A DNA stretch of 64,000 bases from Paludibacteraceae bacterium (GTDB lineage Bacteria > Bacteroidota > Bacteroidia > Bacteroidales > Paludibacteraceae): positions 23,031 to 87,030 of the forward strand of contig JAZRYY010000037.1 in assembly GCA_045600985.1 (NCBI GenBank). Reading direction: 5' to 3'. Made by a program: the position numbers and the translations under genes. Under the pieces are notes generated by a model. It did not search any database, was not told the origin of the DNA, and saw only the letters and a program-made list of their open reading frames with translations. Position 1 is the stretch's first letter, and each line of letters begins with the position of its first letter. Shown here one piece after another: positions 4,322-63,999 of the stretch.

Positions 4322-4339
4322 ATAATATACGATGAAAAT

Positions 4340-5683
4340 ATGAAGAAATTTTTACTTTCTATTGTTGCCATCATGGCTTCTGCCATGGCGATGAATGCTG
4401 CTACCAATGCTACCGCTAAGGACACGTATAATTATCAGACGTACACCTCTGGCGAAAAGCAGTTCAAATTGGAAAACGTGTGGGTCTATGGCCGTAACTG
4501 GGACAATTTCGAAGCCAACAAACCTGGCGGTTTCAATATGTGCCGTGCCATGGGTGCGCAGGATGGTATCATGTATTTCCCTGATCGCCAAAACATGCAA
4601 ATCGTGCGTGTAGATGGCAAAACGGGTGCCTATCTTACCCCTGTGAAATTGGCAAGCAATATCTTCACCGAAGTCGTTACCGACGAATCTGGCAATGAGT
4701 CAACCGTTCCAACCAAGGCCGTTCTGCTCAATAACGACCTGAAGTTCGATAACGCCGGCCACATGCTCCTCGGCGTTTGTGCTACACCTGATTTCCCTAC
4801 CTATCAGGTTTGGAATGTAGATCCTAACACTGGCGAGGGCTATCTCGTGCTCCAAGATCGTCTTATCGATCACCTTCATGATGGCGTATTTACGGATACT
4901 GCACACTTGGCTGGTGGCCGTTTCGACTACTTTGGCGTATATGGCGATGTTACGGCTGATGCTATCATCATGTCATCTGAGCAGTTCACTATGAATGTTT
5001 ATAAGTGGACTATCCGCAGCGGTCAGGTCGTTTCTGTGGAAGATATCGATTGCAAGGTGGCTGAAGGTCTGCCATACTATATCTCAGGTGTTGTTGCCAC
5101 GGGAATTGGCCCTCAGGTTTTCCCTGTGGATGAAGAGTATTTCTATGTGGATGGCTTCAGCACTTTCCCAACCCTCTATGATATGGATGGCGAATTGGTG
5201 GGCGACCTCCAGATGAATGAACATGGCAACAAGGTGGTTATGGATGGCGACACCCTCACCCTTGAAACTGCTCATAACGGCTTGCAGGAGTTCCAGCTTG
5301 GTGGCGAGTATTTCCTCCTCATGGCTGCTAAGGGTACGGGCACGCCTTATTCTTCTTCGTTTGTGCTCTATAAGTTTGCTGATGCAGGCAAGGAAATGGA
5401 TTTCATGGAGCCTGTTTGGTGGTTCCCACATGATGGCCTGGGCGGCGGCTCTAACGAGGTTCGTACCGCTATGCCTTGCGTGGAAGTGGTGGATAATGTG
5501 GCAAATATCTATCTCTATTCGCAGGAGTCTGGTTTTGCACACTATACCCTCACTTGCAATGGTGGCACCGCGCTTGAAAACGTAGAGGAGAATATGCAAG
5601 TCACCAAGACCATTCGCAACAACCAATTGCTCATCCAAAAGAACGGTCAAATCTACAACGCGCTCGGCCTGCAAATTCGATAA
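4340..5683 (+). CDS. Secreted protein, paralog of the C-terminal ~420 aa of the 1469-aa protein, with sorting tail
   Basis: Signal peptide. Colinear identical blocks with the product of 5926-10335: DGIMYFPDRQNMQIVRV, PVKLASNIFTE, LLNNDLKFDNAGHMLLGVC, FDYFGVYGDVTADAIIM, FTMNVYKWTI. Tail NQLLIQKNGQIYNALGLQIR. Confidence 0.7.
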   Translation: MKKFLLSIVAIMASAMAMNAATNATAKDTYNYQTYTSGEKQFKLENVWVYGRNWDNFEANKPGGFNMCRAMGAQDGIMYFPDRQNMQIVRVDGKTGAYLTPVKLASNIFTEVVTDESGNESTVPTKAVLLNNDLKFDNAGHMLLGVCATPDFPTYQVWNVDPNTGEGYLVLQDRLIDHLHDGVFTDTAHLAGGRFDYFGVYGDVTADAIIMSSEQFTMNVYKWTIRSGQVVSVEDIDCKVAEGLPYYISGVVATGIGPQVFPVDEEYFYVDGFSTFPTLYDMDGELVGDLQMNEHGNKVVMDGDTLTLETAHNGLQEFQLGGEYFLLMAAKGTGTPYSSSFVLYKFADAGKEMDFMEPVWWFPHDGLGGGSNEVRTAMPCVEVVDNVANIYLYSQESGFAHYTLTCNGGTALENVEENMQVTKTIRNNQLLIQKNGQIYNALGLQIR

Positions 5684-5716
5684 GGTGTTGGAGCGGTGTT
5701 CCGTTGACTTAACGTA

Positions 5717-5749
5717 GACTCAACACAGACTCAACACGGACTCATCCCG
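5717..5749. repeat. Short tandem stutter repeat (unit gactcaacacr, about 3 copies)
   Basis: Reads gactcaacaca gactcaacacg gactcatcccg, in the intergenic region after the 447-aa gene. Confidence 0.8.
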
Positions 5750-10463: not shown

Positions 10464-12791
10464 ATGAAACACATTTTTAGAATAGCATTTGTTGCATTCT
10501 CATTGCTCATTGCTCATTGCTCAATTATTCCTGTTTCCGCCATCAATCTTGAGGGCGTAGATTATCGTATCGATACCATTCAGGCTTTTCAGGCCGGACC
10601 TGGCACCGATTATTTGCAGTTGCGCATGCTTCGCAATGCTGCCAACGATGGAAGATTGGATGTGTATATCTTGCGAGCTGCCACGCAAAATCCTTATCTG
10701 CAGTTCGCACATGAATTGGGTACAGGAAAAGTAATCGGCACGGAACGCCCTACGGCAATTGCTGCTCGAAAAACCACACCTACCAATATCTATTTTGCAG
10801 GAACAAATGGTTCCTTCTTCGCTACCAGTGGCGACATTGGTAAGCCGTCAGGTCTCACCGTCTCTAAAGGTCAGATCTGCTCAAATGAAAGTTCGCAAAA
10901 ATCATATCCTGTTGCGGGCTTTGATGAAAATAAATTCGCAAAATTCGGTAATGCATGGAGCTTCACGGGACGCGTGTATCGCGGCACCGACACACTCTCT
11001 ATTGCACACGTCAATTATAAACGTAATGAGAACGAACTCGTTCTCTATAATCAATACAACGCGGCCTCCACACTCACCAATGCCTATGGCACGGAACTTC
11101 TTATCTCTCTTAAAGAAGGCTATGCATGGTCAACCAATGGCAAGGTAAAAGCCACTGTCATTCGCAAGGAAGTGAATATCGGCAATATGGCTATTCCTGC
11201 CGGTCAGGCCGTCCTTTCTGGGCACGGCACTTCGGCTGCCGCACTCAACACCTTCAACGAAGGCGAAGAAATAGAAATCTATCTATCTCTCAAGCTGGAT
11301 GGCACCAAATATAGTCTTTCTGAGGCTGCTTCCGGCTCGGGTGGTGGGCACTATCAAATAATCAGCAACGGCGTTGTTCGCGATCCTGACATCTGGGCAG
11401 AGCGCCATCCACGTACGGCTATGGGTGCTACGCAAAATGGCGATACCGCTATCTTCTGCGTAGTGGACGGGCGTGGTAGTTCAATTGGCTGCACTTGCAA
11501 AACCCTCGCCCAGATTATGCACTATTATGGCGCCTACAATGCCGTCAATTGGGATGGCGGTGGCAGTTCTTGCATGTATGTTCGTCATTTCGGCCAAATG
11601 AACACGGGCTCCGATGGTAGTGAACGAGCTTGCGGCAACTCCATGTTCGTCGTAGCGCAAGTGCCAACAGATGATCAAACCATTGCTTCTATCGCGCCAT
11701 ATTGGCCTAAATATAAGCTCCCTCGCTATGGTGCGTATGCTCCTAAATTCTTTGGATATAATCAGTATGGCGTACTCGTTGATCCTGATGTCCAGGGTGT
11801 TAAATTGTCATGTGCCGATGCTGTTGGCTATGTCATTAGCGATACGCTTTTCGTGGCAAGCGGAGCAAATGGAGGCGAATTGAAAGCTCAATTGGGTACT
11901 GCTGAAACCACGATTCAAATCCAGTTAATCCAATCTGCCAGCGTGCATTTCCGTCTTGATTCTGTGATGGTGAGTCACGATAAAACATATCAGGTGGAAG
12001 TGCAAAGCCGTATTGGCATCAGCACCCTGTCGGTCCTTCCTGAAGCCCTTACGTGGCAGTCTCTCGATCCTTCCGTTTGTGAAGTGTCAGAAGCTGGCGT
12101 TATTCAGGGCATCTCCAATGGCATCACCTCTATAGTTGGCTCGCTCGGCGAATTTTCAGATACTCTTCAGGTGCGTGTGGCACTTCCTCAAATGCGCGAC
12201 TCCATTTGGGATGAAGGTACTGCCAGCCGCTGGACCCTATCCGCATCTTCTGGATATAATCCTGCATGGCGAGTAGACGATGCTGGCGTGTTTGTGGATT
12301 TCTCTTATAAAACGGCCCGTGGCCCGTTCCTCACTATGACGCACGAGGCTGAACCCATCTTCGCATTACCCGATACCATTCGCATCCCTTTGAAAACGTC
12401 GGCACAAATAGCTAAAGTAACGCTCAGTATGCGTGCCAATAATTCGTCGGCTTCGCAGGCAATGCAGTTCTTTGTCGATGGTATGCCAAAAGACGAGTGG
12501 TGCGAAATGGTGGTGCCAGTCGCTCAGGAGTTCTCTTCTGATATGGCCATCTATCCGCTTTGGCTGGAATATATCAAATATTGGTTCGATACCAAAACCC
12601 CAGCTGCCGACCATTATGTGCAGTTCGGCGGAGTACATCTCATCTGTAATGAATTTCAGCTGTCTGGCCTTGAGGATATCACGACTCTTGAGCGAGACCT
12701 GAGCGAGACCTCAAAGCTCCTCCAGGATGGCCAGATCGTCATCATTCGAAATGGCCACACCTACAACGTGCTCGGTCAACACATCCAATAA
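10464..12791 (+). CDS. Phosphodiester glycosidase family (DUF2233/NAGPA-like) protein with Ig-like domain and sorting tail
   Basis: Signal peptide. AVNWDGGGSSCMY block characteristic of the family. Colinear similarity to the next gene. Tail QDGQIVIIRNGHTYNVLGQHIQ. Confidence 0.65.
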   Translation: MKHIFRIAFVAFSLLIAHCSIIPVSAINLEGVDYRIDTIQAFQAGPGTDYLQLRMLRNAANDGRLDVYILRAATQNPYLQFAHELGTGKVIGTERPTAIAARKTTPTNIYFAGTNGSFFATSGDIGKPSGLTVSKGQICSNESSQKSYPVAGFDENKFAKFGNAWSFTGRVYRGTDTLSIAHVNYKRNENELVLYNQYNAASTLTNAYGTELLISLKEGYAWSTNGKVKATVIRKEVNIGNMAIPAGQAVLSGHGTSAAALNTFNEGEEIEIYLSLKLDGTKYSLSEAASGSGGGHYQIISNGVVRDPDIWAERHPRTAMGATQNGDTAIFCVVDGRGSSIGCTCKTLAQIMHYYGAYNAVNWDGGGSSCMYVRHFGQMNTGSDGSERACGNSMFVVAQVPTDDQTIASIAPYWPKYKLPRYGAYAPKFFGYNQYGVLVDPDVQGVKLSCADAVGYVISDTLFVASGANGGELKAQLGTAETTIQIQLIQSASVHFRLDSVMVSHDKTYQVEVQSRIGISTLSVLPEALTWQSLDPSVCEVSEAGVIQGISNGITSIVGSLGEFSDTLQVRVALPQMRDSIWDEGTASRWTLSASSGYNPAWRVDDAGVFVDFSYKTARGPFLTMTHEAEPIFALPDTIRIPLKTSAQIAKVTLSMRANNSSASQAMQFFVDGMPKDEWCEMVVPVAQEFSSDMAIYPLWLEYIKYWFDTKTPAADHYVQFGGVHLICNEFQLSGLEDITTLERDLSETSKLLQDGQIVIIRNGHTYNVLGQHIQ
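12690..12711 (+). repeat. In-frame tandem repeat gagcgagacct x2 inside the CDS (peptide ERDLSETS)
   Basis: Two exact 11-bp units, in codon phase 1 of the 10464-12791 ORF, just upstream of the C-terminal tail. Confidence 0.85.
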
Positions 12792-12858: not shown

Positions 12859-15273
12859 ATGAAGAGATTAGTTCTTCCCATCTTAACCCTCCTCTTATCC
12901 GTAATCGTTCAGGCATCCACTATTGATATTAACGGTACTGCCTATCCGGTTGATACGCTCGCGTGCTATCAGGTTGGTCCTGGCACTACCTATACGCGCT
13001 TCAATGTTACGATTGGCTCTACTGCTCATCATTTGTATCTCTATACGGTAGACCTCACCAATCCATACATCAAGGTGGAAGAGGCACATGGAGATAAGTT
13101 GGGCAATACCAAACTCATGACCAAAATGTATCAGGACATGGATTCTGCGGGCCATCGTCCTATCGGTTCTGTCAACTGCAATTTCTGGGTGGTGGCTTCG
13201 CAGGCAGCTGTCGGTTCTGCATGGGAAGGTTGGTTGGGCCAATCGTTTGCCGGCACGGCGAAAGATGGATTCCTCGTTACGGAACCAATGGATTGGAATG
13301 AAGGACACGGCGATCGCGGCTACGTCATGATTGATGATCTCAATCGTGCTCTGATTCGCAATATGTACTTCAGCGGGCGTCTTATCAAAGGTTCACACTC
13401 TCGCAAGATTAAGGATGTGAATAGACCAAGTGTTACGCCATCCGCCAATGAGGTCTGTCTCTTCAATCGTCATATTGGCACCACGCGCGCTATTGCCGAC
13501 ACCGTGGAGGAATATATCTTTGAACCGGTCGCTGGTCAGGCTTGGAGCATCAACGACACCATGACCTGCGTCATCCGCTCAAAAAACACTACGGGACGAA
13601 CCACTCTTTCTGGCAATCAGGGTGCACTTCAATGTCGCGGCACGGGTAAAACATTCATGACCAATTATATCGCTGTGGGCGATACCTTCCAAATCAAATT
13701 GGGTATGTATTCCGCTCCATCATCTGCTTCTCGCAATGCGGGCGAACTCTCCAGTGCCGACTCTATTGCTCCGCACGTTCAGCAGATGGTAACGGGCAAT
13801 TGCCTCGTCATGGCTAATGGCGTACTCACGCATCGCAACACCAATGAGGGCTATAATAATCAGAATTATCCCCGCACCATGCTTGCCACGAATAATGATG
13901 GCACTCGCTTCTGGATGCTCGTCAGCGAAAAACCGGGCAACTTCACAGCAGAGATGTGCGGCATACTCAAGAATGATGGCGCCACTTGGGCTGCCGGTAT
14001 GGATGGTGGCGGTAGTGCGCAGTTCAATCTCTTTGGCTCTATTCTCAATCCAACCACGGAAGCAACGCCGCGTGCCGTAGCGAATGCCATGTTCCTGGTA
14101 AGTACAGCTCCGGATGATAATGTTGTTACCCGTTTGGAAAATAAAGCAAAAGGCGATATCACCATGCAGGCCTATACGGCTTTCGTGCCTTCCTTGCGCG
14201 CGTATAATCAATATGGAAATATAGTAGCAGATGGCTTCGAGTATACCATGTCGGTATCTCCTGCCACGCTTGGCTCTTTCAGCGAAGATGGCCGTACGTT
14301 TGTTGCTGGCGCTATGCCTGGTACGGGTGTTCTTTCCATCACAGCTGGTTCTGCTTCTTTGGATATCACGATCGCGGTAGAGAGTGGCGAATGGCAGATG
14401 CGACTCGATTCTGTAGTGGTGGATCATCGTCCGTACACGCTCGAAGTCCTCACCAAAGATGCGAATCCCTCTCCAGTTCCGGCTGATGTACTTACCTGGA
14501 CCTCTGCCGATGAGTCAATAGCCGTTGTGGAAGATGGGGTGGTGCGCGGTATACGGAATGGTCGCACGCTCCTCACTGGCACCATAGGAGAAAAACAACT
14601 CACCCAAATCGTTGACGTCCAAATCGCCAATGCTCCTGTGATGAATTGGGGATGGGACTCTTATTTCAAGATTACTGGAGTGGATGGCTCAAAAGGATTT
14701 AATCCCGAATGCCTCATGGCTCTTTGTGAATCAGTTGATCCAGATCGTGATATGGCGCTCATTATGAACTTTACGTATGCCACTACCCGTGCTGCGTATG
14801 TCAGCTTCCTCTTGGATGCGCAATCCTACGGCTTGCCCGATTCATTGGTAGTGCGTCTCTATCCAACTTTCTCAGTAAAGAATTTTAATGTATACGGCCA
14901 TGCCAATAATGATAGCAAGGAAACGATGATCACGTTGCCGGGCTGTGAGGAAAATAACTACTGTCGTTTGGCCGTCTCTCCTGCGCAATGGGGGGTAGAT
15001 GTAAGTGATCGTGCAATCTATCCTTTCCATATCACGGGCATCAAGTTGGTGATTGATAAGGCCACGGCTGGTGAACAGTCGGTTAGTCTTGCTAATCCGG
15101 AATGCATCTATGGTGCATGGCGCAAACCAGAAGATAACGATTTGGAAAACGTCTCGCCTCTCACCTCTGGCTCGCAAAACGGTCTTTCTCCTGTTAAAAC
15201 CCTCCGTCATGGTCAACTGATTATTCGGATTGGCGATAAGCAATACAATGCATTAGGGCAAATAATAAAATAA
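12859..15273 (+). CDS. Phosphodiester glycosidase family (DUF2233/NAGPA-like) paralog with sorting tail
   Basis: Signal peptide. AAGMDGGGSAQF block. N-terminal YQVGPGTTYTRF parallels FQAGPGTDYLQL in the previous gene. Tail RHGQLIIRIGDKQYNALGQIIK. Confidence 0.65.
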   Translation: MKRLVLPILTLLLSVIVQASTIDINGTAYPVDTLACYQVGPGTTYTRFNVTIGSTAHHLYLYTVDLTNPYIKVEEAHGDKLGNTKLMTKMYQDMDSAGHRPIGSVNCNFWVVASQAAVGSAWEGWLGQSFAGTAKDGFLVTEPMDWNEGHGDRGYVMIDDLNRALIRNMYFSGRLIKGSHSRKIKDVNRPSVTPSANEVCLFNRHIGTTRAIADTVEEYIFEPVAGQAWSINDTMTCVIRSKNTTGRTTLSGNQGALQCRGTGKTFMTNYIAVGDTFQIKLGMYSAPSSASRNAGELSSADSIAPHVQQMVTGNCLVMANGVLTHRNTNEGYNNQNYPRTMLATNNDGTRFWMLVSEKPGNFTAEMCGILKNDGATWAAGMDGGGSAQFNLFGSILNPTTEATPRAVANAMFLVSTAPDDNVVTRLENKAKGDITMQAYTAFVPSLRAYNQYGNIVADGFEYTMSVSPATLGSFSEDGRTFVAGAMPGTGVLSITAGSASLDITIAVESGEWQMRLDSVVVDHRPYTLEVLTKDANPSPVPADVLTWTSADESIAVVEDGVVRGIRNGRTLLTGTIGEKQLTQIVDVQIANAPVMNWGWDSYFKITGVDGSKGFNPECLMALCESVDPDRDMALIMNFTYATTRAAYVSFLLDAQSYGLPDSLVVRLYPTFSVKNFNVYGHANNDSKETMITLPGCEENNYCRLAVSPAQWGVDVSDRAIYPFHITGIKLVIDKATAGEQSVSLANPECIYGAWRKPEDNDLENVSPLTSGSQNGLSPVKTLRHGQLIIRIGDKQYNALGQIIK

Positions 15274-15279
15274 AATAGT

Positions 15280-18200
15280 ATGAAACACACAATCTCTTTA
15301 CTCGTGGCTGTAATGATGGTAGCTACCATGGCAGCCCAACCAATTCGAGTGTTGTCGAATCAGAAACTGGGCGAAGGTTTTTCTCCTCGTTTCTCAGCTG
15401 ATGGCACGACGATTGAGTATCTCGAAAGCGAAACAGAGCAGTATGCTGCAGTTGCAGATGCTGCACTTTCAGTATCAAATCAGGATCTTAAACTCTTGCT
15501 CATTCGCAATGGTCAAACCATTCAACTCACCCCTGCCGGTGATGTGGCTTATGTATGGTCAACCCTTTCTCCTGATCAGTCAAAGATTGTTTACACCACC
15601 AAGTTTGGTACGGCTGTCTGCGATTTGAATGGCCGTGAACTCATCAATCTGGGCCATCTTAATGCGCCACAATGGATGGGCAACGATCATATCGTAGGTA
15701 TGTATGAGGAAAGCGATGGCCACTACTATACGGCTGCGGCTATTGCTATCCGTTCTATTGATGGCACGCTTGATCAGGTACTTACGGATAAAGCCGAAAT
15801 GGGTATGTATCCTGCTGTACATGCGGCTACGGGTCGTATTGCTTACGAAACGCTCAATGGCGATATTCGTATGCTCCAAACCAACCTCACCGAGCAGCCT
15901 GTTCTGTCCACGTTGCCAATGCTGAAGAAAGCTCCTCAACGTGCTATTCGTCGCATGGCTTCTGCCACCGTTACTCCTGGCACGCTGCAGCCAAATCAGG
16001 TGCGTATTTATATCAATCCTGGTCATGGTGGCTACACGGGTAACGACCGCGGTATGTACATCTATCCATTTGAGCGCGGCTCTCGTGAGCAGTTCTGGGA
16101 GAGTAAATCCAATCTGCAGAAGGGACTTATCCTTCGTGATATCCTTCGTGATCTTGGCTATAATGTGCAAATGAGCCGTGCTGATGTGCCTGTTGAACCT
16201 CGCACCAATGCCAACTATTATACGGTTTCTACCGAGAATAACCCAGAGGAAGACGATCTCGATCTCTCTGTGATTGTGGCGCAGGCCAATACTTATGATG
16301 CACATTTCATGCTCTCTATCCATTCCAATGCCGGTGGCCCATCCAATTATGCGTTGATGCTCTATTCCGGTAAGGATGCCAATGATACGCATTCATATGC
16401 AGATTATAATTTGAAGGATAATGAAAGTCGTGCGGTCTCTACTCTTATAGGCCGCAATATCATGTCCAATCAAAATGCCACATGGGGTCCTCGTACCGAA
16501 CCTTGGGTGATTGGCGATAAGACGTTCGCTCGTACTATCATGGGATGGAGCAATGGCTATGGCGTACTTCGCTATTTGCGCGTTCCTGGCCTTATTTCTG
16601 AGGGTCGTATGCACGATTATTATCCAGAAACCTATCGTATGATGAATATGGATTATCAGCGCGATGAGGCTTGGGCATTCGCAAGAGCATTTAATGAGTA
16701 CTTCTGCAATTTGGAGTTTGATTACGGCGCTATTGCCGGACAGGTTCGCGATTGGTATAAGAACTGGGAATTTCCGGATATCGCCAAGCGTTCCGGCTCA
16801 CGCGATACGAAGCAGCCTATCATGGGCGCTATGGTGGAATTGCTCCAGAATGGCACGCCTGTTGATACCACTTATACCGATGATATTTATAATGGTGTAT
16901 TCTATTTCTGGAATCGTACTCCGGGTGAATATTCTGTTCGCGTAACGGCTGAACATTATTATCCAATGGAGAAGAACTATACGGTAGTTGCCAATCAGGT
17001 TTCATATAACGATTTCATGCTCAATCAAAAGCGTGAGACGCGTCCTGAAGTGGTATCTTATTTCCCACATCCTGCTGCGATCACGGATAGTGTGGACGTT
17101 GCTACCACCATCGCCTTGAGTTTCAATTGGGATATGTGGGAAGAAAAAACCACGCCTGCATTCTCTATCTCGCCAGCCGTGGCAGGTACTGTTACGTATG
17201 AGGATTCGCATCGCACCCTACGCTTCACGCCTGCACATGCATTTGAGAAAGGTACGGAGTATACCGTAACGTTAGCTGCTTCTGCTGCCCATCCGGATAC
17301 TACCTTCGCCAATACCATGGCAGCTGATTTCTCATTCAAGTTCCGCACCAAGAATCGTGATGCCATCCGCATCAAGATGCAATATCCGGAAGCTGATGCA
17401 GTTGATGTGCCTTTGAATCCTTCTTTCCTATTCATTCTTGATGAAGAAATCACGTCAACGTCTGCACGTAATGCCTTCACCCTTAAGGATGCTGCTGGCA
17501 ATACCGTTGCGCTCAATACGCGTTCAATGGCTTGCAATAAGTTGGCTTCGCCATTTGGTTCGATCACATTCGAAACTACCAATGCTTTGGCTGCCAACAC
17601 CACTTATACGCTTACCATGTCGAAGAATCTGCAGGATAAGATTGGCGTTTATCTCAATCAGGATGTAGCAATTTCCTTTACGACGCAGGCTGAAGAAGTC
17701 GTGACCTTGCCAATGGTGGATAAATTGGATACGTTGCAGTTCGTATTTGATGCTGATAAGTCTGTGTTCGTAAGCAATGGCTCTACTTTGAAGAATACCA
17801 ATAAGAAGTATTCTGGCACGGCTTCCAACGAATTATCGTATACGTTTGGCGAAGCAAGCAGCGATGCTGTGGCATATTTCTCTATGAAGAATCCTATGCT
17901 CGTTCAGGCTACGGCTAACGACACGGTGGGCATGTACGTCTTCTCTGATCTCTGCCAGAACGAGGTAGAACTTGTATGGAATTCAGAAGGCGACGTGAAG
18001 TATACTCCGCTCTGTACGCTTGATTATGGCGGCTGGAAATGGCAGACGGCAGATATGTCGGAATTGCCAGCTGGTGTTACCTACCAATTGATGGCTATCC
18101 GCGTAAAGCGTGGCACGTCCATCCTTTCGGGCTCAGGCAAGGTGTACATCAACGACCTTAGCTTCAAGGCTGGCATCATTACGGCAGTAGAAGATATTCA

Positions 18201-18297
18201 GATTGATACTCAGGCGAAGAAGATGATTGAAGATAATCAGGTAGTCATCATTCGCAATGGTATTCGCTATAATGCACTTGGCCAGGTAATTGAATAA
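15280..18297 (+). CDS. Multidomain N-acetylmuramoyl-L-alanine amidase (Amidase_3) with propeller-like N-terminus, Ig-like repeats and sorting tail
   Basis: IYINPGHGGYTGNDRG and LSIHSNAGG zinc-amidase motifs. Carboxypeptidase-regulatory-like segment GEYSVRVTAEHYYP. Tail EDNQVVIIRNGIRYNALGQVIE. Confidence 0.7.
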   Translation: MKHTISLLVAVMMVATMAAQPIRVLSNQKLGEGFSPRFSADGTTIEYLESETEQYAAVADAALSVSNQDLKLLLIRNGQTIQLTPAGDVAYVWSTLSPDQSKIVYTTKFGTAVCDLNGRELINLGHLNAPQWMGNDHIVGMYEESDGHYYTAAAIAIRSIDGTLDQVLTDKAEMGMYPAVHAATGRIAYETLNGDIRMLQTNLTEQPVLSTLPMLKKAPQRAIRRMASATVTPGTLQPNQVRIYINPGHGGYTGNDRGMYIYPFERGSREQFWESKSNLQKGLILRDILRDLGYNVQMSRADVPVEPRTNANYYTVSTENNPEEDDLDLSVIVAQANTYDAHFMLSIHSNAGGPSNYALMLYSGKDANDTHSYADYNLKDNESRAVSTLIGRNIMSNQNATWGPRTEPWVIGDKTFARTIMGWSNGYGVLRYLRVPGLISEGRMHDYYPETYRMMNMDYQRDEAWAFARAFNEYFCNLEFDYGAIAGQVRDWYKNWEFPDIAKRSGSRDTKQPIMGAMVELLQNGTPVDTTYTDDIYNGVFYFWNRTPGEYSVRVTAEHYYPMEKNYTVVANQVSYNDFMLNQKRETRPEVVSYFPHPAAITDSVDVATTIALSFNWDMWEEKTTPAFSISPAVAGTVTYEDSHRTLRFTPAHAFEKGTEYTVTLAASAAHPDTTFANTMAADFSFKFRTKNRDAIRIKMQYPEADAVDVPLNPSFLFILDEEITSTSARNAFTLKDAAGNTVALNTRSMACNKLASPFGSITFETTNALAANTTYTLTMSKNLQDKIGVYLNQDVAISFTTQAEEVVTLPMVDKLDTLQFVFDADKSVFVSNGSTLKNTNKKYSGTASNELSYTFGEASSDAVAYFSMKNPMLVQATANDTVGMYVFSDLCQNEVELVWNSEGDVKYTPLCTLDYGGWKWQTADMSELPAGVTYQLMAIRVKRGTSILSGSGKVYINDLSFKAGIITAVEDIQIDTQAKKMIEDNQVVIIRNGIRYNALGQVIE

Positions 18298-28207: not shown

Positions 28208-28582
28208 ATGAGAAGTATGAAAAAATATCTCTGTGAGCACGTAGCTCTGGTGCTGTTGTTTTTTGCGATGATGCCACTCTCTTCAATGGCGCAGAATGTC
28301 TATTCTACCGACCATTCTTATCAGGCCGACGTAGAAGTGTACGTTGTCGACCATGAGTATCAGGCCGATTTACTGGTATATAAGGTCGACTACGAATATC
28401 AGGCCAAAGGAAATGAAGGCAAGTGGTATTTCGTGGAACATGAATACCAATCCGACGTGAATATCCACTTTGTAGATCACGAATACCAGGCCGACCTGAA
28501 TGTCTATTTCGTCAAGGAAGAATACAGGGCCGGTTGGAAAGATACATCAAAGAAGCACCTGCTTGACGGCAAAAAGAAATAA
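28208..28582 (+). CDS. Secreted repeat protein with five (D/E)HxYQ(A/S)D...V(Y/H)xV repeats
   Basis: Signal peptide ending SSMAQN. Repeats DHSYQADVEVYVV, DHEYQADLLVYKV, DYEYQAKG..WYFV, EHEYQSDVNIHFV, DHEYQADLNVYFV. Confidence 0.6.
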   Translation: MRSMKKYLCEHVALVLLFFAMMPLSSMAQNVYSTDHSYQADVEVYVVDHEYQADLLVYKVDYEYQAKGNEGKWYFVEHEYQSDVNIHFVDHEYQADLNVYFVKEEYRAGWKDTSKKHLLDGKKK

Positions 28583-28618: not shown

Positions 28619-29623
28619 TTATTTTCTGCGGAACTCGGCAAGAATGACGGCCGTGGCGATGGCGACGTTCAAAGATTCAACGCGAATCTTTGAACTGTTC
28701 AAAGGCTCTGCAGGTTTCCCTTCGACATGCTCAGGGCAGGCATCCGCAGCTGGAGTTGCTGGTTTCAGGGTTTCAGTTGGTTTCAGAGTTTCAGGGGATT
28801 GGAAGGATGGAATGAAGAGCGGGTGGGTGATGAGGGTGCGCACTTCGGGCGAGATACCGTTGCCTTCGTTGCCCATGATGATAATGCCGTTCTGCTTCTG
28901 AGGAATGGCCCCCGGAGTATACATGTTAACGCCATCGAGGAGCGTGCCATAGATGGGGAGAGGGTGCCTCTCTAACTCCCCTTGGGGGAGAGTGCTTTTG
29001 CAGAAAGTTGGGGAGGCGGCACGGGAGGCGGCGCAACCTCGTTGCTCGCCTATCCATTCTACGAGATTCACGTAGTGAAGACGAACGCGGGCGAGTGCTC
29101 CCATCGTGGCCTGCACCACCTTCGGGTTCCAGCAGTCGGCCGTGTCGTGCGAGCAAACGATATGGCGGATGCCAAACCAATCCGCTGTGCGAATAATCGT
29201 ACCCAGATTGCCGGGGTCCTGCACGCCGTCGAGAACGAGAACGAGCTCGTTTTGAGGATCGGGAAGAGTGGCTGTTGAGTCGCTCTTGTGTCGCTGGAAG
29301 ACCGCTATCATGCCTTGTGGCGTCCTCATGCTCGACATTTGTTCAATTTCCGTTTCCGTTGCTTCAAAGATGAGGTCTCGCTGAGGTCTCGCTGAAGTCT
29401 CGCTGAGGTCTCGCGCAACTGCTGCTATTGAGTCTACTATGGGTCTACTATGTGTCCACGTATCGTCCACGTTGGAAAAGACCAACATTTTGAGCGGGAA
29501 GTGCTCAATAAGTTCTTCGATACATTTGTGGCCTTCGGCTACAAAAACTCCCTCTGCGTCGCGCACCTTTTTTTGCTGCAGACTGCGGATATATTTGACC
29601 TGATTTTTGCTGATGTGTTGCAT
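28619..29623 (-). CDS. SpoU/TrmH family RNA 2'-O-methyltransferase carrying three in-frame low-complexity insertions
   Basis: LVLDGVQDPGNLGTIIRTADWFG, IIIMGNEGNGIS and ESLNVAIATAVILAEF motifs. At 334 aa it is longer than the usual roughly 240-270 aa. Confidence 0.8.
   Translation of the reverse strand: MQHISKNQVKYIRSLQQKKVRDAEGVFVAEGHKCIEELIEHFPLKMLVFSNVDDTWTHSRPIVDSIAAVARDLSETSARPQRDLIFEATETEIEQMSSMRTPQGMIAVFQRHKSDSTATLPDPQNELVLVLDGVQDPGNLGTIIRTADWFGIRHIVCSHDTADCWNPKVVQATMGALARVRLHYVNLVEWIGEQRGCAASRAASPTFCKSTLPQGELERHPLPIYGTLLDGVNMYTPGAIPQKQNGIIIMGNEGNGISPEVRTLITHPLFIPSFQSPETLKPTETLKPATPAADACPEHVEGKPAEPLNSSKIRVESLNVAIATAVILAEFRRK
28761..28796 (-). repeat. CTGAAAC-family stutter repeat inside the trmH-like CDS (peptide PETLKPTETLKP)
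   Basis: Plus strand reads ggtttcagggtttcagttggtttcagagtttcagg. Positions 28779-28795 are the exact reverse complement of 63676-63692. Confidence 0.85.
29011..29034 (-). repeat. Stutter repeat gggaggcggcRc x2 inside the trmH-like CDS
   Basis: Reads gggaggcggcac gggaggcggcgc. It lies in the segment encoding GCAASRAASP. Confidence 0.75.
29372..29415 (-). repeat. Tandem 11-bp repeat gaggtctcgct x4 inside the trmH-like CDS (peptide RDLSETSARPQRDL)
   Basis: Four consecutive 11-bp units with 1-nt variants. This is the reverse complement of the gagcgagacct family seen at 12690. Confidence 0.9.
29430..29473 (-). repeat. Two adjacent 11-bp stutter pairs (gtctactatgg x2, gtccacgtatc x2) inside the trmH-like CDS
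   Basis: Reads gagtctactatgggtctactatgtgtccacgtatcgtccacgtt. Confidence 0.8.
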
Positions 29624-29679
29624 AAATGATGAAAATATGCTGCAAAAGTACTAAAATATTTGCATATATGCAAAATAAA

Positions 29680-29711
29680 TTTGCGTATTTCAAAAAAAAG
29701 TAGTAATTTTG
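29680..29711 (+). promoter_or_regulatory. Bacteroidota-type promoter for the BamA-like gene
   Basis: TTTG at 29680-29683 and TAATTTTG at 29704-29711, within tttgcgtatttcaaaaaaaagtagtaattttg. Confidence 0.65.
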
Positions 29712-42240: not shown

Positions 42241-42272
42241 GTTGCGTATCCCAAAAAAAAGTAGTAATTTTG
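42241..42272 (+). promoter_or_regulatory. Bacteroidota-type promoter for the Ala-rich lipoprotein gene
   Basis: gttgcgtatcccaaaaaaaagtagTAATTTTG, with the -7 at 42265-42272. Confidence 0.6.
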
Positions 42273-42323
42273 CATCCGTTTTGTGGAAAATACTTGTATG
42301 TGGATAATAAATTTACAAATAAT

Positions 42324-42872
42324 ATGAAGAAAATACTTTTCTCTCTCGCAGCTGTCGCACTTCTTGCAAGCTGCAGCCTTTTGAAAGGCACCTCTGCCAA
42401 TAACGCAGCTGCACCTGCTGCATCAACCACCGCTGACGCTGCTGCTGTCAGCACCACGCTCACGGCTGGTCAGGCTGCCGGCAATGCCCTCCATGCCCTC
42501 TATACGCAATACAAGGCGGATGGCAAATATGATTATAAGAATATCAATAATGCCATCAATGCCACGCTCCTTCTTGCCAACTGTGCTGATCTTCCAAAGA
42601 ATGTGAAGAATGCCGCTTATCTGAAGGAGTTCAGCCAGGGCCTGATTGCTTCATCGGCTGGATTGGTTACGCAGAGCAACGTGAATGCCGTCACCAATAA
42701 CCTCACCACCATCGCTACCGAATATGCGCAGGGTGTTGCTGAAAAGACGGCTGCAAGCGAAACGGCACAAAAAGCAGCTGCCACCACCAATACCGTGGCT
42801 GAAAAACTGGCCACAGCTGCTTCTACTGCCAATTCCATCAGCTCGCTTTTGAGCCTCTTTGGCAAGAAATAA
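42324..42872 (+). CDS. Ala-rich lipoprotein, function unknown
   Basis: Start placed after the promoter at MKKILFSLAAVALLASCS (lipobox). Helical Ala/Thr/Asn-rich body. Confidence 0.6.
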   Translation: MKKILFSLAAVALLASCSLLKGTSANNAAAPAASTTADAAAVSTTLTAGQAAGNALHALYTQYKADGKYDYKNINNAINATLLLANCADLPKNVKNAAYLKEFSQGLIASSAGLVTQSNVNAVTNNLTTIATEYAQGVAEKTAASETAQKAAATTNTVAEKLATAASTANSISSLLSLFGKK

Positions 42873-42901: not shown

Positions 42902-42950
42902 CACGAGTGTTCCACGAGAGTTGGACGAGAGTTGGACGAGACCTCGACGA
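42902..42950. repeat. Stutter repeat (gttggacgaga x2 plus cacgag variants, ending in cgagacctc)
   Basis: Reads cacgagtgttccacgagagttggacgagagttggacgagacctcgacg. Confidence 0.75.
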
Positions 42951-51887: not shown

Positions 51888-52022
51888 TTGGTCAAGCCAC
51901 ACAATAGCGACACTTGAACGACACCTGAACGACACTTGAGCCACTCAAGAGAGACACCTGAACGACTCAAAAGCTTCTCAAGTCGCAAGTCCCGCTCAGG
52001 TGGCTTGACCAACATTTTTTTT
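51888..52022 (+). terminator. Terminator-like hairpin after glyQS with a ~99-nt stutter-repeat loop
   Basis: 13-bp arms ttggtcaagccac (51888-51900) and gtggcttgaccaa (52000-52012), followed by 8 T (52015-52022). The loop contains acttgaacgac / acctgaacgac / acctgaacgac-type units. Confidence 0.5.
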
Positions 52023-52452: not shown

Positions 52453-52673
52453 ATCTCGCGTTATTCCCGATTTAACGATTTGGCGGTTTTACTATGCCTC
52501 GGTATCTCTCCAGAATATCGCCTGCAAACTCTATGCCTAATCCGTGGAACTTTTCCGTACCCACTTCTCTTTCTTGATTACATAAAAGCTTTGGTGAGAA
52601 ACACAAAAAAATGCATTCAAACATGTAAAAACACAAAAAAAGTCCGCTTTTTCCATAGAAAATGCCTCGAAAA

Positions 52674-52705
52674 TTTGGTGATTTCAAAAAAAAGTTGTAT
52701 CTTTG
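52674..52705 (+). promoter_or_regulatory. Bacteroidota-type promoter for upxY, with a ~95-nt leader
   Basis: TTTG at 52674-52677 and TATCTTTG at 52698-52705. Confidence 0.6.
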
Positions 52706-52803
52706 CGCGATTTATTGGGCGTATTTTGCCCGCGCACGTCCTCCTGCCCGCATGTGACAGGGGGAAAAACGTCGTACCTATACGTTTAAAATTTCCTAAT
52801 AGT

Positions 52804-53343
52804 ATGCCAGCAAATTCATCCCAAATATGGTGGGCGGTTTACACCCAGCCTTGTCACGAGAAGCGCGTTGCGCAGTCGCTCGCTGCCGCCGGTGAGGAGG
52901 TCTTTGTGGCAACCCGCAAGGAGATTCATCAGTGGTCCGACCGCAAGAAGGAGGTCGAGGTGCTCCTCATTCCTCACGTCATTTTCCTCCGTGCCACAAA
53001 AGAGCATCGTGAGGAACTTATTCGAACCAATCCTCGCTTAGTTGGCGTGATGAGAGAGGCTGTTTCTCGCACCCCTATCGTCATTCCTGATAGCCAGATG
53101 CAAACTTTCATCACTGCCGTTCTATCGTCCTCTACCGAACTCAAGTTCGTGTCAAAGGACGATCCACAATACACAGCCGTCAGTTTCAACCCCGGAGATG
53201 AAATCACTATCTTACGTGGCAAATTCAAAGGAACCAAGGGTTATATCATCAACGCCCAAAATGTCAACCGTTTTGTTGTTCGGGTGGGTTCCCTTGGTCT
53301 TCTAATTTTACCATGTGTTGATGTTGAACTCGTAGAAAGTTAA
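52804..53343 (+). CDS. UpxY-family (NusG-like) transcription antiterminator
   Basis: WWAVYTQPCHEKRVAQSL NGN-type N-terminus and KOW-like GDEITILRGKFKGTKGYI. Start placed downstream of the promoter. Confidence 0.75.
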   Translation: MPANSSQIWWAVYTQPCHEKRVAQSLAAAGEEVFVATRKEIHQWSDRKKEVEVLLIPHVIFLRATKEHREELIRTNPRLVGVMREAVSRTPIVIPDSQMQTFITAVLSSSTELKFVSKDDPQYTAVSFNPGDEITILRGKFKGTKGYIINAQNVNRFVVRVGSLGLLILPCVDVELVES

Positions 53344-61117: not shown

Positions 61118-62365
61118 ATGCATATACTCGTAACCGGTGCGAAAGGTTTCGTAGGAAAGAACCTCTGCGCACAACTCAACAACATCAAAGAAGGCAAGGC
61201 TAAATGCTATGGCGACCTCGTAGTAGAGGATGTCTATCAGTACGATATCGACTCTACGCCAGAGCAACTTGATGAATACTGCCAAAAGGCTGATTTCGTT
61301 TTCAACCTCGCTGGTGTCAACCGTCCTCAAAACCAGGAGGAATTTATGCAGGGCAATTTCGGCTTCGCTTCTACGCTGCTTGATACCCTCAAGAAACACC
61401 ACAACACTTGTCCGGTGATGTTGTCCAGTTCTATCCAGGCCACGCTTGCCGGCCGTTTCGGCACGTCTGAATATGGCAAGAGCAAGAAGGCAGGTGAGGA
61501 ACTTTTCTTCGATTATAGCAAAGAAACGGGCGCTAAGGTACTCGTATATCGATTCCCTAATCTTTATGGCAAGTGGTGTCGTCCTAACTACAACTCGGCT
61601 GTGGCTACGTTCTGCAATAATATCGCCAACGACCTGCCTATCACGGTCAACGACCCAACCGTAGATATGGAACTTCTCTATATCGACGACCTCGTTGAGG
61701 AAATGATCTGTGCACTCAAAGGCGAGGAACACTATTGCACTTTCGATGGTGTCAATGCCATACCACTTGAAACCTCTGAAACTTTGGAACTTGAAACTAA
61801 AGGCGAACATGCGTACGCCTACTGTCCCATCACCCATCACGTCAAGTTGGGCGAGATTGTGGACCTCCTCAATCAGTTTGCCGAGATGCCAAAGACCCTC
61901 ATGATTCCTGAGATCCCTGCCGATTCGTTCGCAAAACGCCTCTATAGCACTTTCCTCAGTTATCTACCTAAAGAGAAAGCCATCTTCGATCTTAAGATGA
62001 ACGTAGATCCACGCGGTAGCTTTACGGAATTGGTTCATACCCTCAATTGCGGTCAGGTCAGCATCAACATCTCCAAGCCGGGCATTACCAAGGGCCAGCA
62101 TTGGCACCACACCAAATGGGAGCAGTTCATCGTCGTTTCCGGCCATGGTCTCATCCAACTCCGCAACGAGAATGATCCTAATGGCGAGATTCTTAATTAT
62201 GAAGTCTATGGCGATAAGATTCAGTCCGTCCTCATGCTCCCTGGCTACACTCACAATATCATCAATCTGAGCGATACTGAAGATTTAGTCACAGTCATGT
62301 ACTGCAACGAGATCTTTAACCCCAATCGCCCGGACACTTACTTCGATCCCGTGGAGCCAAAGTAG
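61118..62365 (+). CDS. fnlB: CapF/WbjC(FnlB)-like bifunctional SDR + cupin enzyme of UDP-L-FucNAc-type sugar synthesis
   Basis: ILVTGAKGFVGKNL, LAGVNRP, LSSSIQA, FPNLYGKWCRPNYNSAVATFC, with a C-terminal cupin-like half. This closely parallels the CapF layout. Confidence 0.7.
   Translation: MHILVTGAKGFVGKNLCAQLNNIKEGKAKCYGDLVVEDVYQYDIDSTPEQLDEYCQKADFVFNLAGVNRPQNQEEFMQGNFGFASTLLDTLKKHHNTCPVMLSSSIQATLAGRFGTSEYGKSKKAGEELFFDYSKETGAKVLVYRFPNLYGKWCRPNYNSAVATFCNNIANDLPITVNDPTVDMELLYIDDLVEEMICALKGEEHYCTFDGVNAIPLETSETLELETKGEHAYAYCPITHHVKLGEIVDLLNQFAEMPKTLMIPEIPADSFAKRLYSTFLSYLPKEKAIFDLKMNVDPRGSFTELVHTLNCGQVSINISKPGITKGQHWHHTKWEQFIVVSGHGLIQLRNENDPNGEILNYEVYGDKIQSVLMLPGYTHNIINLSDTEDLVTVMYCNEIFNPNRPDTYFDPVEPK
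61766..61797 (+). repeat. CTGAAAC-family stutter repeat in frame in the fnlB-like gene (peptide LETSETLELET)
   Basis: Reads cttgaaacctctgaaactttggaacttgaaac, in codon phase 1 of the ORF, in the linker between the SDR and cupin halves. Confidence 0.8.
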
Positions 62366-62393
62366 TTTCAAGTTTCATGTTCCAAGATTCAAG
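62366..62393 (-). repeat. Inverted copy of the TTGAATC/TGAAAC repeat family, left flank of the four-helix-bundle gene
   Basis: Plus strand reads tttcaagtttcatgttccaagattcaag. The reverse complement is cttgaatcttggaacatgaaacttgaaa. Confidence 0.65.
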
Positions 62394-62395
62394 AT

Positions 62396-62797
62396 ATGGC
62401 AAAAGCAGAAAAGTTTGAAGATTTGGTAATCTTCCAGAAAGCACGTGAACTTTGTAAAGAAGTTTATCGTGTGACAAATCAAGAACCGTGGAAATACGAT
62501 ACACGATTTGTACAGCAAATCCATGCAGCTGTTGGCAGCATTATGGATAATATTGCTGAAGGTTACGAACGTGATGGCAACAAGGAGTTCAAGAACTTCC
62601 TATATATTGCCAAAGGATCATGTGGTGAGGTTCGCTCTCAGATAATTCGAGCTTCTGATGTTGGTTTTATAGATTCAGAAACATCAACGAAGTTATATAA
62701 TGATTGTATAGCTCTCAACAAGAGCATTGCAGCCTTTATCAAGAGTCTTCGTGTGGGCGGAATTTCCGGTATCAAGTACATGGAACCTGAATCCTGA
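62396..62797 (+). CDS. Four-helix-bundle protein (23S rRNA intervening-sequence protein family)
   Basis: FEDLVIFQKARELCKEVYRVT..., DNIAEGYER, AKGSCGEVRSQ signature blocks. The last codons (MEPES) are supplied by the flanking repeat. Confidence 0.8.
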   Translation: MAKAEKFEDLVIFQKARELCKEVYRVTNQEPWKYDTRFVQQIHAAVGSIMDNIAEGYERDGNKEFKNFLYIAKGSCGEVRSQIIRASDVGFIDSETSTKLYNDCIALNKSIAAFIKSLRVGGISGIKYMEPES

Positions 62798-62849
62798 AAC
62801 CACCTGAATCCTGAAACCACCTGAATCCAGAAACTTGAATCCTGAAACC
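62785..62849 (+). repeat. 17-bp tandem repeat acctgaatcctgaaacc, about 3.8 copies
   Basis: Exact units at 62785-62801 and 62802-62818, variant acctgaatccagaaact at 62819-62835, partial tgaatcctgaaacc at 62836-62849. Confidence 0.9.
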
Positions 62850-62904
62850 AAAGAATATCGAAAGTATAACAAATAATATAAACATATAATAAACAAACGT
62901 TCTT

Positions 62905-63999
62905 ATGAGTATTTTCAAAGACAAAGTCCTCATGATTACCGGTGGTACCGGTTCATTTGGTAATGCAGTTCTCAACCGTTTCCTGAAGACCGACATTGCA
63001 GAGATCCGCATCTTCTCTCGTGACGAGAAGAAGCAGGACGATATGCGTCACCTCTATCAGGTAACCATGCCCGAGGTAGCCAACAAAATCAAGTTCTACA
63101 TCGGTGATGTTCGCGACCTCCAGTCTTGCCGCAACGCAATGCCTGGTGTTGACTACATCTTCCATGCAGCAGCCCTCAAGCAGGTGCCTTCTTGCGAGTT
63201 CTTCCCTATGGAAGCCGTTCGCACCAATGTCATTGGTACCGACAATGTCCTCACCGCTGCTATCGAGGCCAAGGTGGGCGCTGTTATCTGCCTTTCAACC
63301 GATAAGGCTGCCTATCCTATCAACGCCATGGGTATCACCAAGGCTATCGAGGAGAAGATTGCAGTAGCAAAGAGTCGTTACTCAGGTGATACCAAGATCT
63401 GTTGCACCCGTTATGGCAACGTGATGTGCTCTCGTGGCTCCGTTATCCCTCTGTGGATTGACCAGATTCGCAACGGTAATCCTATCACCATCACCGAACC
63501 AAAGATGACACGCTTCATCATGTCGCTTGAAGAAGCCGTTGACCTCGTTCTCTTCGCTTTCGAGCATGGTCAGAATGGTGATATCCTCGTCCAGAAAGCT
63601 CCTGCCTGCACCATCCAAACTCAGGCAGAGGCTGTAATCGATCTCTTCAAGCATCAGTTCGCACAGAACTTGAATCCTGAAACTCTGAAACCTGAAACCT
63701 CAGAACCCGAAATTCGTGTCATTGGCATCCGTCACGGTGAGAAGCTCTACGAGACCCTCCTCACCAACGAAGAGTGTGCCAAAGCCGAGGATATGGGCAA
63801 CTTCTATCGCGTTCCTGCTGACAACCGTGGCTTGAACTACGATAAGTACTTCAAGGAAGGTGACGAAAAGCGTAACACCCTCACCGAGTTCAACTCCGAC
63901 AATACCACCCGTCTCAACCTCGAAGAGACCAAGTCCAAGATTGCCGCACTCGAGTATATCCAGAATGAGCTCAAAGGTATCGAAAATATAGCTAAGTAA
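62905..63999 (+). CDS. fnlA: FnlA/CapE/WbjB-like UDP-GlcNAc 4,6-dehydratase/5-epimerase
   Basis: KVLMITGGTGSFGNAVLNRFL, IRIFSRDEKKQDDMR, YIGDVRD, HAAALKQVPSCEF. 364 aa including a repeat-derived insert. Confidence 0.8.
   Translation: MSIFKDKVLMITGGTGSFGNAVLNRFLKTDIAEIRIFSRDEKKQDDMRHLYQVTMPEVANKIKFYIGDVRDLQSCRNAMPGVDYIFHAAALKQVPSCEFFPMEAVRTNVIGTDNVLTAAIEAKVGAVICLSTDKAAYPINAMGITKAIEEKIAVAKSRYSGDTKICCTRYGNVMCSRGSVIPLWIDQIRNGNPITITEPKMTRFIMSLEEAVDLVLFAFEHGQNGDILVQKAPACTIQTQAEAVIDLFKHQFAQNLNPETLKPETSEPEIRVIGIRHGEKLYETLLTNEECAKAEDMGNFYRVPADNRGLNYDKYFKEGDEKRNTLTEFNSDNTTRLNLEETKSKIAALEYIQNELKGIENIAK
63664..63712 (+). repeat. CTGAAAC-family stutter repeat in frame in the fnlA-like gene (peptide QNLNPETLKPETSEPEI)
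   Basis: Reads cagaacttgaatcctgaaactctgaaacctgaaacctcagaacccgaaatt, in codon phase 1. Positions 63676-63692 are identical to the reverse complement of 28779-28795. Confidence 0.85.

Follow-up and report, generated by a model that had tools for sequence, protein, structure and literature searches.

The window analysed here, a 64,000-nucleotide stretch from a Paludibacteraceae bacterium (GenBank assembly GCA_045600985.1, contig JAZRYY010000037.1, positions 23,031 to 87,030 of the forward strand), carries a gene for an RNA 2′-O-methyltransferase of the SpoU/TrmH family whose excess length, ∼84 residues, is lineage-specific DNA in four variable, solvent-exposed loops. Repeat units of these inserts recur elsewhere in the window. 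Those of insert (a) belong to an 11-nucleotide (nt) family, and an array within insert (c) belongs to a CTGAAAC family that also forms the inverted ends of a cassette with a PF05635 open reading frame (ORF). The inserts were probably produced by slippage and template switching together with seeding from repeat families dispersed in the genome, with selection acting as a filter. A note made earlier on the same DNA had described three in-frame tandem-repeat insertions in this gene and attributed them to a repeat-generating or mobile process of which only in-frame, tolerated copies survive.

The methyltransferase and its four insert sites

The gene and its inserts are located as follows, with the basis of each assignment in parentheses.

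28619..29623, minus strand: intact 334-residue ORF of a SpoU/TrmH-family (RlmB/RlmR/YsgA-like) RNA 2′-O-methyltransferase (PF00588, PF22435, PDB 2i6d)
29363..29467, minus strand: insert (a), residues 53–87, 35 residues (Tandem Repeats Finder, TRF, and repeat finder; orthologue alignment)
~29252..29295, minus strand: site (d), residues 112–124 in the interdomain linker, three 11-nt units (TRF, 29266–29295; alignment)
28964..29011, minus strand: insert (b), residues 205–220, 16 residues, PTFCKSTLPQGELERH (orthologue alignment, DNA fold)
28682..28801, minus strand: insert (c), residues 275–314, 40 residues, between strand β6 (IPSF) and the final ESLNV helix (repeats, alignment)

The ORF matches PF00588 (SpoU_methylase; E = 3e-25, 89.4 bits against a cut-off of 29.7) and PF22435, the N-terminal MRM3-like substrate-binding domain (E = 1.7e-16, 60.9 bits against a cut-off of 27), and its sequence matches a TrmH-family structure from Porphyromonas gingivalis (PDB 2i6d) with an E value of 2e-42. 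The three SPOUT motifs (N-x-G-x-x-x-R, G-x-E-x-x-G and IP...SLN) can be read in the translation as DPGNLGTIIRTA, IIMGNEGNGIS and IPSF...ESLNVAIATA, and their columns are invariant in an alignment with 21 orthologues. The description of the gene as an open SpoU/TrmH-type ORF with all of its motifs holds. The core of the AlphaFold2 model has values of the predicted local distance difference test (pLDDT) above 90, and a Foldseek search with the model returned 2i6d (E = 5e-26, target TM-score 0.80), followed by RlmR, YsgA and RlmB. The predicted model has the α/β fold of solved SpoU/TrmH members, and by this fold the enzyme looks more like a 23S rRNA 2′-O-methyltransferase than a tRNA TrmH. These structural neighbours suggest 23S rRNA as the predicted substrate, and we infer that enzyme activity is retained despite the inserts.

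With its 334 residues the protein is the longest among its 120 best homologues (median 243 residues), and the excess is confined to four gap regions of the alignment with 21 orthologues. Relative to the family the segments are insertions, as had been claimed, at four sites rather than three, site (d) having been missed; the three segments had been located, with boundaries that the alignment shifts to those listed above. All of the repeats described earlier were recovered with TRF and a repeat finder. The nearest methyltransferase relative in the genome collection is only 48% identical, and close relatives were taken from short Logan/ENA contigs. The two closest orthologues, L009 and L010, are from independent assemblies of other samples and were aligned with the window at the DNA level.

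Insert (a) is periodic throughout and can be written in 11-nt rows of about nine units (GTGGACGATAC, GTGGACACATA, GTAGACCCATA, GTAGACTCAAT, a 12-nt break and four copies of GCGAGACCTCA). It contains four 11-nt units TGAGGTCTCGC at 29371–29414 (three exact and one with one mismatch) and a further 11-nt pair at 29429–29450 (91%); the preceding units GTGGACGATAC and GTGGACACATA are more degenerate. Residues 51–80 of this region have pLDDT values of 57–70 and are partly modelled as a helix. Site (d) reads CAGCGACACAA GAGCGACTCAA CAGCCACTCTT, begins on the native Phe-Gln-Arg (FQR) codons and is three residues longer than in L010.

Insert (b) has the layout CTCTCCCC-CAA-GGGGAG-TTA-GAGAGG-CAC-CCTCTCCCC, with two adjacent 6-bp hairpins (DNA fold z = −3.07), the last arm of which, CCTCTCCCC, is made of the native Pro-Leu-Pro codons. 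The pLDDT is below 50 at residues 199–217. This segment had been drawn too widely: residues 205–220 are inserted, whereas the nine-residue stretch GCAASRAAS, with its pair of GGGAGGCGGC copies (29011–29020 and 29023–29032, 12 nt apart), aligns with native GCSAS-type sequence and so lies outside the insert.

Insert (c) is a composite of a CTGAAAC-type array (28760–28796), ∼57 nt of other sequence and a second, older copy of the region with the ESLN motif. The array contains GGTTTCAG ∼4.2 times, or can be read with period 18 at 94%. The 3′ end of the insert has the layout CTTTGAAC-A-GTTCAAAGATTC-GCGTT-GAATCTTTGAAC (z = −3.0), in which the second arm is the native ESLN codons; the older ESLN copy and the native motif pair as a 12-bp hairpin (28667–28695), and a related ESLNSS(T)VESLNV duplication is found in several orthologues. 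Residues 285–310 have pLDDT values below 50. In SPOUT enzymes the C-terminal helix forms part of the knot. Insert (c) sits directly before this helix, among four separate sites in one 250-residue enzyme, and these 40 residues offer a natural test of fold tolerance in the SPOUT family. The inserts as a whole occupy low-pLDDT segments between confident core elements, in agreement with their proposed placement in tolerated loops. Hairpin potential is found in (b) and at the 3′ end of (c), which fold at z values of about −3; insert (a), site (d) and the array of (c) are direct repeats. Shuffled windows give 0–2 arrays per 64 kb at a TRF score of at least 40, and the methyltransferase gene, 1 kb in length, holds five at a score of at least 30; its repeats are beyond chance.

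Slipped-strand tandem duplication of 11-nt units would account for insert (a) and site (d), the latter seeded on native CAGCG codons. Hairpin-mediated template switching may have written inverted-plus-direct copies of adjacent native sequence into (b) and the 3′ part of (c), since direct–inverted–direct layouts that use native sequence are the product of switching at quasi-palindromes. The same features suit an explanation by purely local mutation, in which all of the inserts arose by in-place slippage or duplication of native codons, without a dispersed source, and units at different loci resemble each other through chance and selection for T-poor, hydrophilic coding. In its favour are the start of site (d) on native codons, the different units of L009, the copying of adjoining native sequence in (b) and the 3′ end of (c), the filling of the same loops in other lineages by unrelated repeats of 7, 8, 14 and 16 nt and the modest overall repeat density. 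The similarity between arrays at distant loci, given in the following section, makes this explanation unlikely.

Two other repeats flank the gene. The neighbouring DUF6150 protein (28208–28582) contains repeated (D/E)HEYQAD-type motifs, a protein-level repeat that is unrelated to the DNA arrays, and a 21-nt repeat, AAAAAATTTGCATATTGCAA, is present in 2.3 copies at 29653–29699, in the divergent promoter region that separates the methyltransferase gene from the Omp85/TamA-like gene.

Two dispersed array families and a PF05635 cassette

The 11-nt family occurs at five loci in 64 kb, four of them outside the methyltransferase gene.

12687..12713, plus strand: 11-nt unit TGAGCGAGACC, two copies, in the gene of an unrelated NAGPA-domain surface protein (10464..12791); 22 of 23 nt identical to insert (a), E = 7.5e-5
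5715..5744, plus strand: intergenic 11-nt array, AGACTCAACAC, 2.6 copies, ~30 nt past the stop codon of ORF 4340..5683
42902..42950, plus strand: intergenic 11-nt array, CACGAGAGTTC / GACGAGACCTC, upstream of aspS and 30 nt past the stop codon of ORF 42270..42872
51897..51982, plus strand: intergenic 11-nt array, CGACACTTGAA and variants, ~8 units, after a ProRS-like gene

The repeat in the surface-protein gene encodes RDLSETS, as in insert (a), in a linker that is four residues longer than in four paralogues. The three intergenic arrays begin ∼30–37 nt past a stop codon; the array at 42902–42950 is bounded by the direct repeat TTTTTTTAAGATTT, and that at 51897–51982 lies inside the loop of a terminator with a 13-bp stem and a T-run. 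On their sense strand the arrays are rich in A and C and contain 15% T. The unit of insert (a) has six matches against 0.76 expected. Pairs of 11-nt arrays from different loci that agree at 13/16 or better number seven, all sense-to-sense, against 0.6 expected from a null of synthetic periodic arrays of matched composition (maximum of five in 400 trials). Similarity above such a null argues against purely local mutation, as do the 22/23-nt identity of insert (a) with an unrelated gene and the presence of the same families in intergenic arrays, which are free of coding selection.

Tandem duplications in the window are found in seven regions at lag 11, seven at lag 6, eight at lag 7 and five at lag 10, and in none at lags 13–16; lag 11 outnumbers lags of 12 and above but not lags 6–7. 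The motif GACWCAANAG is not enriched across the window (19 matches against 22.6 expected), for which reason we claim relatedness of the arrays only and not a free-standing motif. In a metagenome scan the 27-nt array pattern of insert (a) had no match, and a 15-nt pattern, CTGAAWCCTGAAACC, gave 120+ matches, essentially the chance level, none of which is related to the window.

The second family, CTGAAAC, is clustered at four loci of the window, all on the sense strand. Its members outside the methyltransferase gene lie in and between two capsule-enzyme genes of a polysaccharide locus.

61764..61796, plus strand: clean 33-nt in-frame CTGAAAC-type insertion encoding LETSETLELET, in the interdomain linker of a CapF/FnlB-like gene
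62362..62850, plus strand: 489-nt cassette between the capF-like and fnlA-like genes (PF05635 ORF and inverted heptamer arrays)
62362..62393, plus strand: left arm of the cassette, a GTTTCAR heptamer array, reverse complement of the CTGAAAC family (inverted pairs)
62396..62797, plus strand: PF05635 ORF (23S_rRNA_IVP, four-helix-bundle, Avd-like), 133 residues (E = 1.6e-31)
62781..62850, plus strand: right arm of the cassette, YTGAAAC units, ACCTGAATCCTGAAACC, 4.1 copies
63667..63712, plus strand: CTGAAAC-type array encoding NLNPETLKPETSEPE, inside an FnlA/CapE-like dehydratase gene

The arms of the cassette pair over 27 nt at 78% and over 23 nt at 83% complementarity, and the stop codon of the PF05635 ORF is a TGA of the right-arm array. 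The interval between capF and fnlA measures ∼540 bp in the window and is a 26-bp spacer in the Segatella-copri-like contig L137. Cassettes with the same layout were found on three further contigs. In one (L138) the protein is 94% identical to that of the window and the upstream gene is different (Epimerase_2); in the other two (L139 and L145) the proteins are identical to each other and 72% identical to that of the window, in the same context. Small GC hairpins are interspersed in all three. The PF05635 ORF has 6,686 homologues at E ≤ 1e-20, and many of the 70 C-termini that were read end in ...NLKPET*, ...MEPES* or ...EPET*, which is translated array with the stop inside the right arm. The cassette is not in 23S rRNA, as Rfam finds no rRNA in the window. 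For one homologue (P0286) ten of ten places have identical neighbours and so provide no direct evidence of mobility.

In-frame copies of the CTGAAAC family are found in several enzymes. The 33-nt insertion of the CapF-like gene is missing from the L137 orthologue, and the linker is ∼23 residues longer than in PDB 2zkl. The FnlA-like array amounts to 13–15 extra residues relative to PDB 4j2o and 3vvb and is identical to the array of insert (c) over 17 of 17 nt. FnlA orthologues at 94–96% identity lack the array, and others at 85–89% carry LKPETLxPE variants made of the same DNA units. A UDP-glucose dehydrogenase gene on a Segatella-copri-like contig contains CCTGAAACTCTGAAACC in frame, as part of an insert of ∼38 residues relative to PDB 3phl. 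A multiple alignment reveals one core, CCTGAAACCTGAAACT(C)TGAAAC-CTGAAACC, that is common to insert (c), three FnlA inserts and, at four cassette loci, the right arm. The 17/17-nt identity and the status of the CTGAAAC array as the conserved terminal repeat of a cassette family in many genomes are further evidence against a purely local origin. Insert (c) is itself at most a solo arm-like array and not a cassette.

Several observations were made on the surroundings of these loci. Over its first 753 nt the fnlA-like gene (62905–63999) is 89.5% identical to L137; the point at which the BLAST match stops coincides with the array and may mark a recombination breakpoint or a mosaic gene. Three short tandem arrays are located at 61002–61108, just upstream of the capF-like gene, and the 1.2 kb at 59898–61118 have no convincing ORF or Rfam match and contain repeated blocks such as CGTCATCGT...ACCCGTCCC. 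An AAA_15/AAA_21 ATPase and DUF3226 gene pair at 56976–59898 in the polysaccharide locus may be a defence-type module. The last 34 nt of tRNA-Asp(GTC) (52179–52253) and the downstream terminator hairpin are duplicated ∼146 bp further on (52220–52314 and 52365–52461, 94–100%), just upstream of the NusG/UpxY-like gene (52480..53343) that opens the polysaccharide locus, and the duplication looks like the att-type scar of an integrative element. At 1832–18297 six consecutive genes encode large surface proteins, including Flg_new and NAGPA-domain proteins, which end in ...(I/L)IIRNGxxYNALGQxI*; this shared C-terminal motif is probably a sorting or anchoring domain without a Pfam identification.

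Turnover, proposed selective filtering and proposed origin of the inserts

Third-codon-position identity in the methyltransferase core is 0.655 between the window and L009 and 0.48–0.49 between either of them and L010, which makes L009 the sister of the window and L010 the outgroup. Insert (a) is common to the window and L009 (84% nt identity, with a 12-nt indel) and is absent from L010 and most orthologues. Insert (b) is common to the window and L010 in diverged form; in L009 it is missing, and one copy remains of CTCTCCCC, the direct repeat that flanks the insert in the window, which points to a deletion in that lineage. Within insert (c), the CTGAAAC array and another block of ∼32 nt are present in the window only. 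L009 contains 3.8 copies of AGCGGTTCTCC at site (d) and, in addition, a private insert of ∼36 nt. The loops of two more distant orthologues (L011 and L013) are filled by unrelated tandem repeats with periods of 7, 8, 14 and 16 nt. Gain and loss of inserts differ between close relatives, and presence/absence differences, for which the earlier note had proposed a check, are evident between the window, L009 and L010. In most orthologues the inserts are absent or unrelated, unlike segments conserved throughout a family.

Arrays were also seen elsewhere on the contigs of these relatives. Directly after the methyltransferase stop codon of L010 (2446–2604) three arrays follow one another, 26 nt ×2.6, 11 nt ×4 (ATCAGCGGAGT) and 7 nt ×3.4, which is another instance of arrays accumulating at the 3′ end of a gene. 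The related Bacteroidales contig L013 (GCA_045599545.1, JAZRWG010000056.1, 1–20852) is densely packed with heptamer arrays, at 7.7 arrays per 10 kb; an AGTTGAA/AGTTTAA family occupies at least six sites, mostly gene junctions, and GGAAAGT arrays lie inside both the methyltransferase and the RNase HII genes.

The source appears to be a metagenome-type assembly, in which repeats are error-prone, and the inserts could in principle be an assembly artefact or the gene a decaying pseudogene. Such readings are exceedingly improbable. Inserts (a) and (b) each recur, with substitutions, in an independent assembly from another sample, the same array types occur across many public contigs, and the ORF is intact with every motif present; the codon-position identities of the core between the window and L009 (92/96/65%) follow the pattern typical of purifying selection and indicate, at the sequence level, that the core is under such selection. 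A phase-variable contingency locus, in which changes in the unit number of a long homogeneous tract switch the frame on and off, does not fit the gene: there are only two to four diverged copies of 8–11-nt units and the ORF is intact in all three relatives.

It is very unlikely that the segments are functional additions kept by selection, for example as new RNA- or protein-binding loops. Insert (a) is 84% identical in the window and L009 (84/94/74% by codon position), against 65% at synonymous sites of the core, and the helix modelled in part of it would suit a function; the sample is small (31 codons), and concerted repeat evolution could mimic conservation. The gain and loss of inserts between close relatives, their absence or unrelatedness in most orthologues, the low model confidence, the low-complexity composition and the occurrence of the same arrays in non-coding DNA all argue against function.

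Selection is likely to have acted instead as a filter. Fourteen of the 38 arrays with a TRF score of at least 30 lie in the non-coding 9% of the window, where arrays are ∼6-fold commoner per base than in coding DNA; the excess fits selective filtering and agrees with the idea that in-frame copies are those that survive. The genes for AspRS, ProRS, MurC, FtsA, LpxK, SppA, RNase HII, Omp85 and RlmD contain no arrays, and that for FtsZ contains two weak ones (score below 40). The idea of a repeat-flooded genome was rejected, because array density in the window is only about twice the Escherichia coli baseline; given this modest window-wide density, the methyltransferase gene is a local hot spot, probably owing to its tolerance of insertions. 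A pure heptamer CTGAAAC array, as read from the sequence, gives an in-frame TGA within three units. The coding copies have units of 8–10 nt, jointly of period 18 in the methyltransferase, with TGA out of frame, and that their lengths sum to multiples of three can be ascribed to selection for frame and against TGA. The poverty in T of the sense strand results in peptides rich in Pro, Glu, Thr, Lys, Ser, Arg and Asp; the opposite orientation would encode hydrophobic residues.

In the origin that we favour, by slippage, template switching and seeding, GCGAGACCTCA-type 11-mers from the family at the four other loci would have seeded insert (a), and the CTGAAAC array of insert (c) would be a solo copy of the inverted-end array of PF05635 cassettes. 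Arrays may have reached new loci by cassette insertion followed by loss, by ectopic conversion or by templated repair, and selection would then have kept only in-frame, TGA-avoiding, T-poor copies that encode hydrophilic disordered peptides in loops.

Several points weigh against this account. The methyltransferase gene and its surroundings show neither a target-site duplication nor a transposase, and a complete element is likewise absent. Several distant orthologues share the FnlA array, so that it is old and the copy in insert (c) could come from rare ectopic conversion rather than from an active element. Neither an inverted partner nor a cassette was found for the 11-nt arrays in a search of the window, and the ∼57 nt of insert (c) and the 5′ half of insert (b) match nothing. 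The minimum-energy fold of the cassette RNA (62355–62860) does not pair the arms into one long stem. Array density at a TRF score of at least 40 is 2.3 per 10 kb in the window against 1.2 in an E. coli K-12 sample. The comparisons were made within the window itself, which is 91% coding, and with short contigs of relatives. The mobile process proposed earlier is retained insofar as the array of insert (c) is of the same family as the PF05635 cassette ends and the other in-frame enzyme inserts; transposition within the gene has no counterpart in what was found there.

A bolder form of the seeding proposal is tentative: PF05635 cassettes of Bacteroidales might be selfish elements whose arms, together with the second, 11-nt array family, actively seed loci, including enzyme loops, as a 'mobile microsatellite'. 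That such a mechanism remodels protein loops and gene 3′ ends, and is distinct from miniature inverted-repeat transposable elements (MITEs), Rickettsia palindromic elements and ordinary slippage, is likewise a speculative possibility.

Comparison with known systems

Rickettsia palindromic elements are in-frame repeat insertions in ORFs and have a conserved palindromic unit of 100–150 bp. As in the window, repeat-derived DNA lies in frame at fold-tolerated positions of conserved genes, with copies across unrelated genes. The analogy, which had been drawn in the earlier note, fails on the defining feature: the present inserts are arrays of 7–11-nt units and local quasi-palindromes whose boundaries and content vary by locus, and self-BLAST of each segment against the 64-kb window returned short unit arrays only and no longer shared element. 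For the same reason it is quite improbable that the inserts are complete miniature mobile elements, of the Rickettsia or MITE type, transposed in frame. Their dispersal, their position in frame and in loops, the hairpin potential of (b) and the inverted repeats of the cassette ends would be compatible with such elements, but no 100–150 bp unit recurs in the window, the insert boundaries lack terminal inverted repeats and target-site duplications, and (a) and (d) are plain direct tandem arrays.

The short tandemly repeated repetitive (STRR) sequences of cyanobacteria are dispersed heptamers, mostly intergenic and high in copy number across the genome (about 100 or more), that are also found inside the RNase P RNA gene. 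In both systems short units (7 nt in each) stand in tandem at several unlinked loci, with an intergenic bias and some copies in tolerant loops. The window differs in phylum, in its second family with an 11-nt period, in the in-frame copies in protein genes and in the heptamer arrays that serve as inverted ends of PF05635 cassettes. We know of no described link between STRR sequences and such cassettes.

The intervening sequence (IVS) of the 23S rRNA of Coxiella burnetii measures 428 nt, carries an S23p ORF and has a 28-bp terminal inverted-repeat stem at which RNase III cuts; the element is considered selfish and horizontally acquired (PMC4990558). The window cassette, at 489 nt, is similar in having a PF05635 ORF bracketed by terminal inverted repeats. 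Unlike the IVS, it lies between protein genes of a polysaccharide locus, has heptamer arrays of only 78–83% complementarity as arms and is not predicted to close with a single stem. The PF05635 (Avd/rRNA intervening-sequence) family is large and poorly understood, and the present findings connect it with a specific repeat architecture as well as with insertions that lie in ordinary genes of gut Bacteroidales, an abundant group, providing a concrete handle on whether the cassettes move.

In-frame repeat insertions, dispersed short tandem repeats of the STRR type and PF05635 intervening sequences are already known separately. In the literature on Prevotella and Bacteroidales we found no specific prior description of heptamer-array arms on PF05635 cassettes, nor in the literature any description of solo arm copies in frame in several enzymes or of a companion 11-nt family. 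For annotation, the arrays explain length outliers among conserved genes. Intragenic repeats made by slippage share with the inserts their head-to-tail units, the turnover of copy number and sequence between relatives and the location in disordered loops; the inserts differ in their non-triplet units (11 nt and 7–10 nt), in the identical units at unrelated loci and in the four sites within one knotted enzyme. If the proposed origin is correct, bacterial proteins gain disordered loops not by codon-wise slippage alone but also from non-triplet repeats that are shared across the genome and trimmed into frame.

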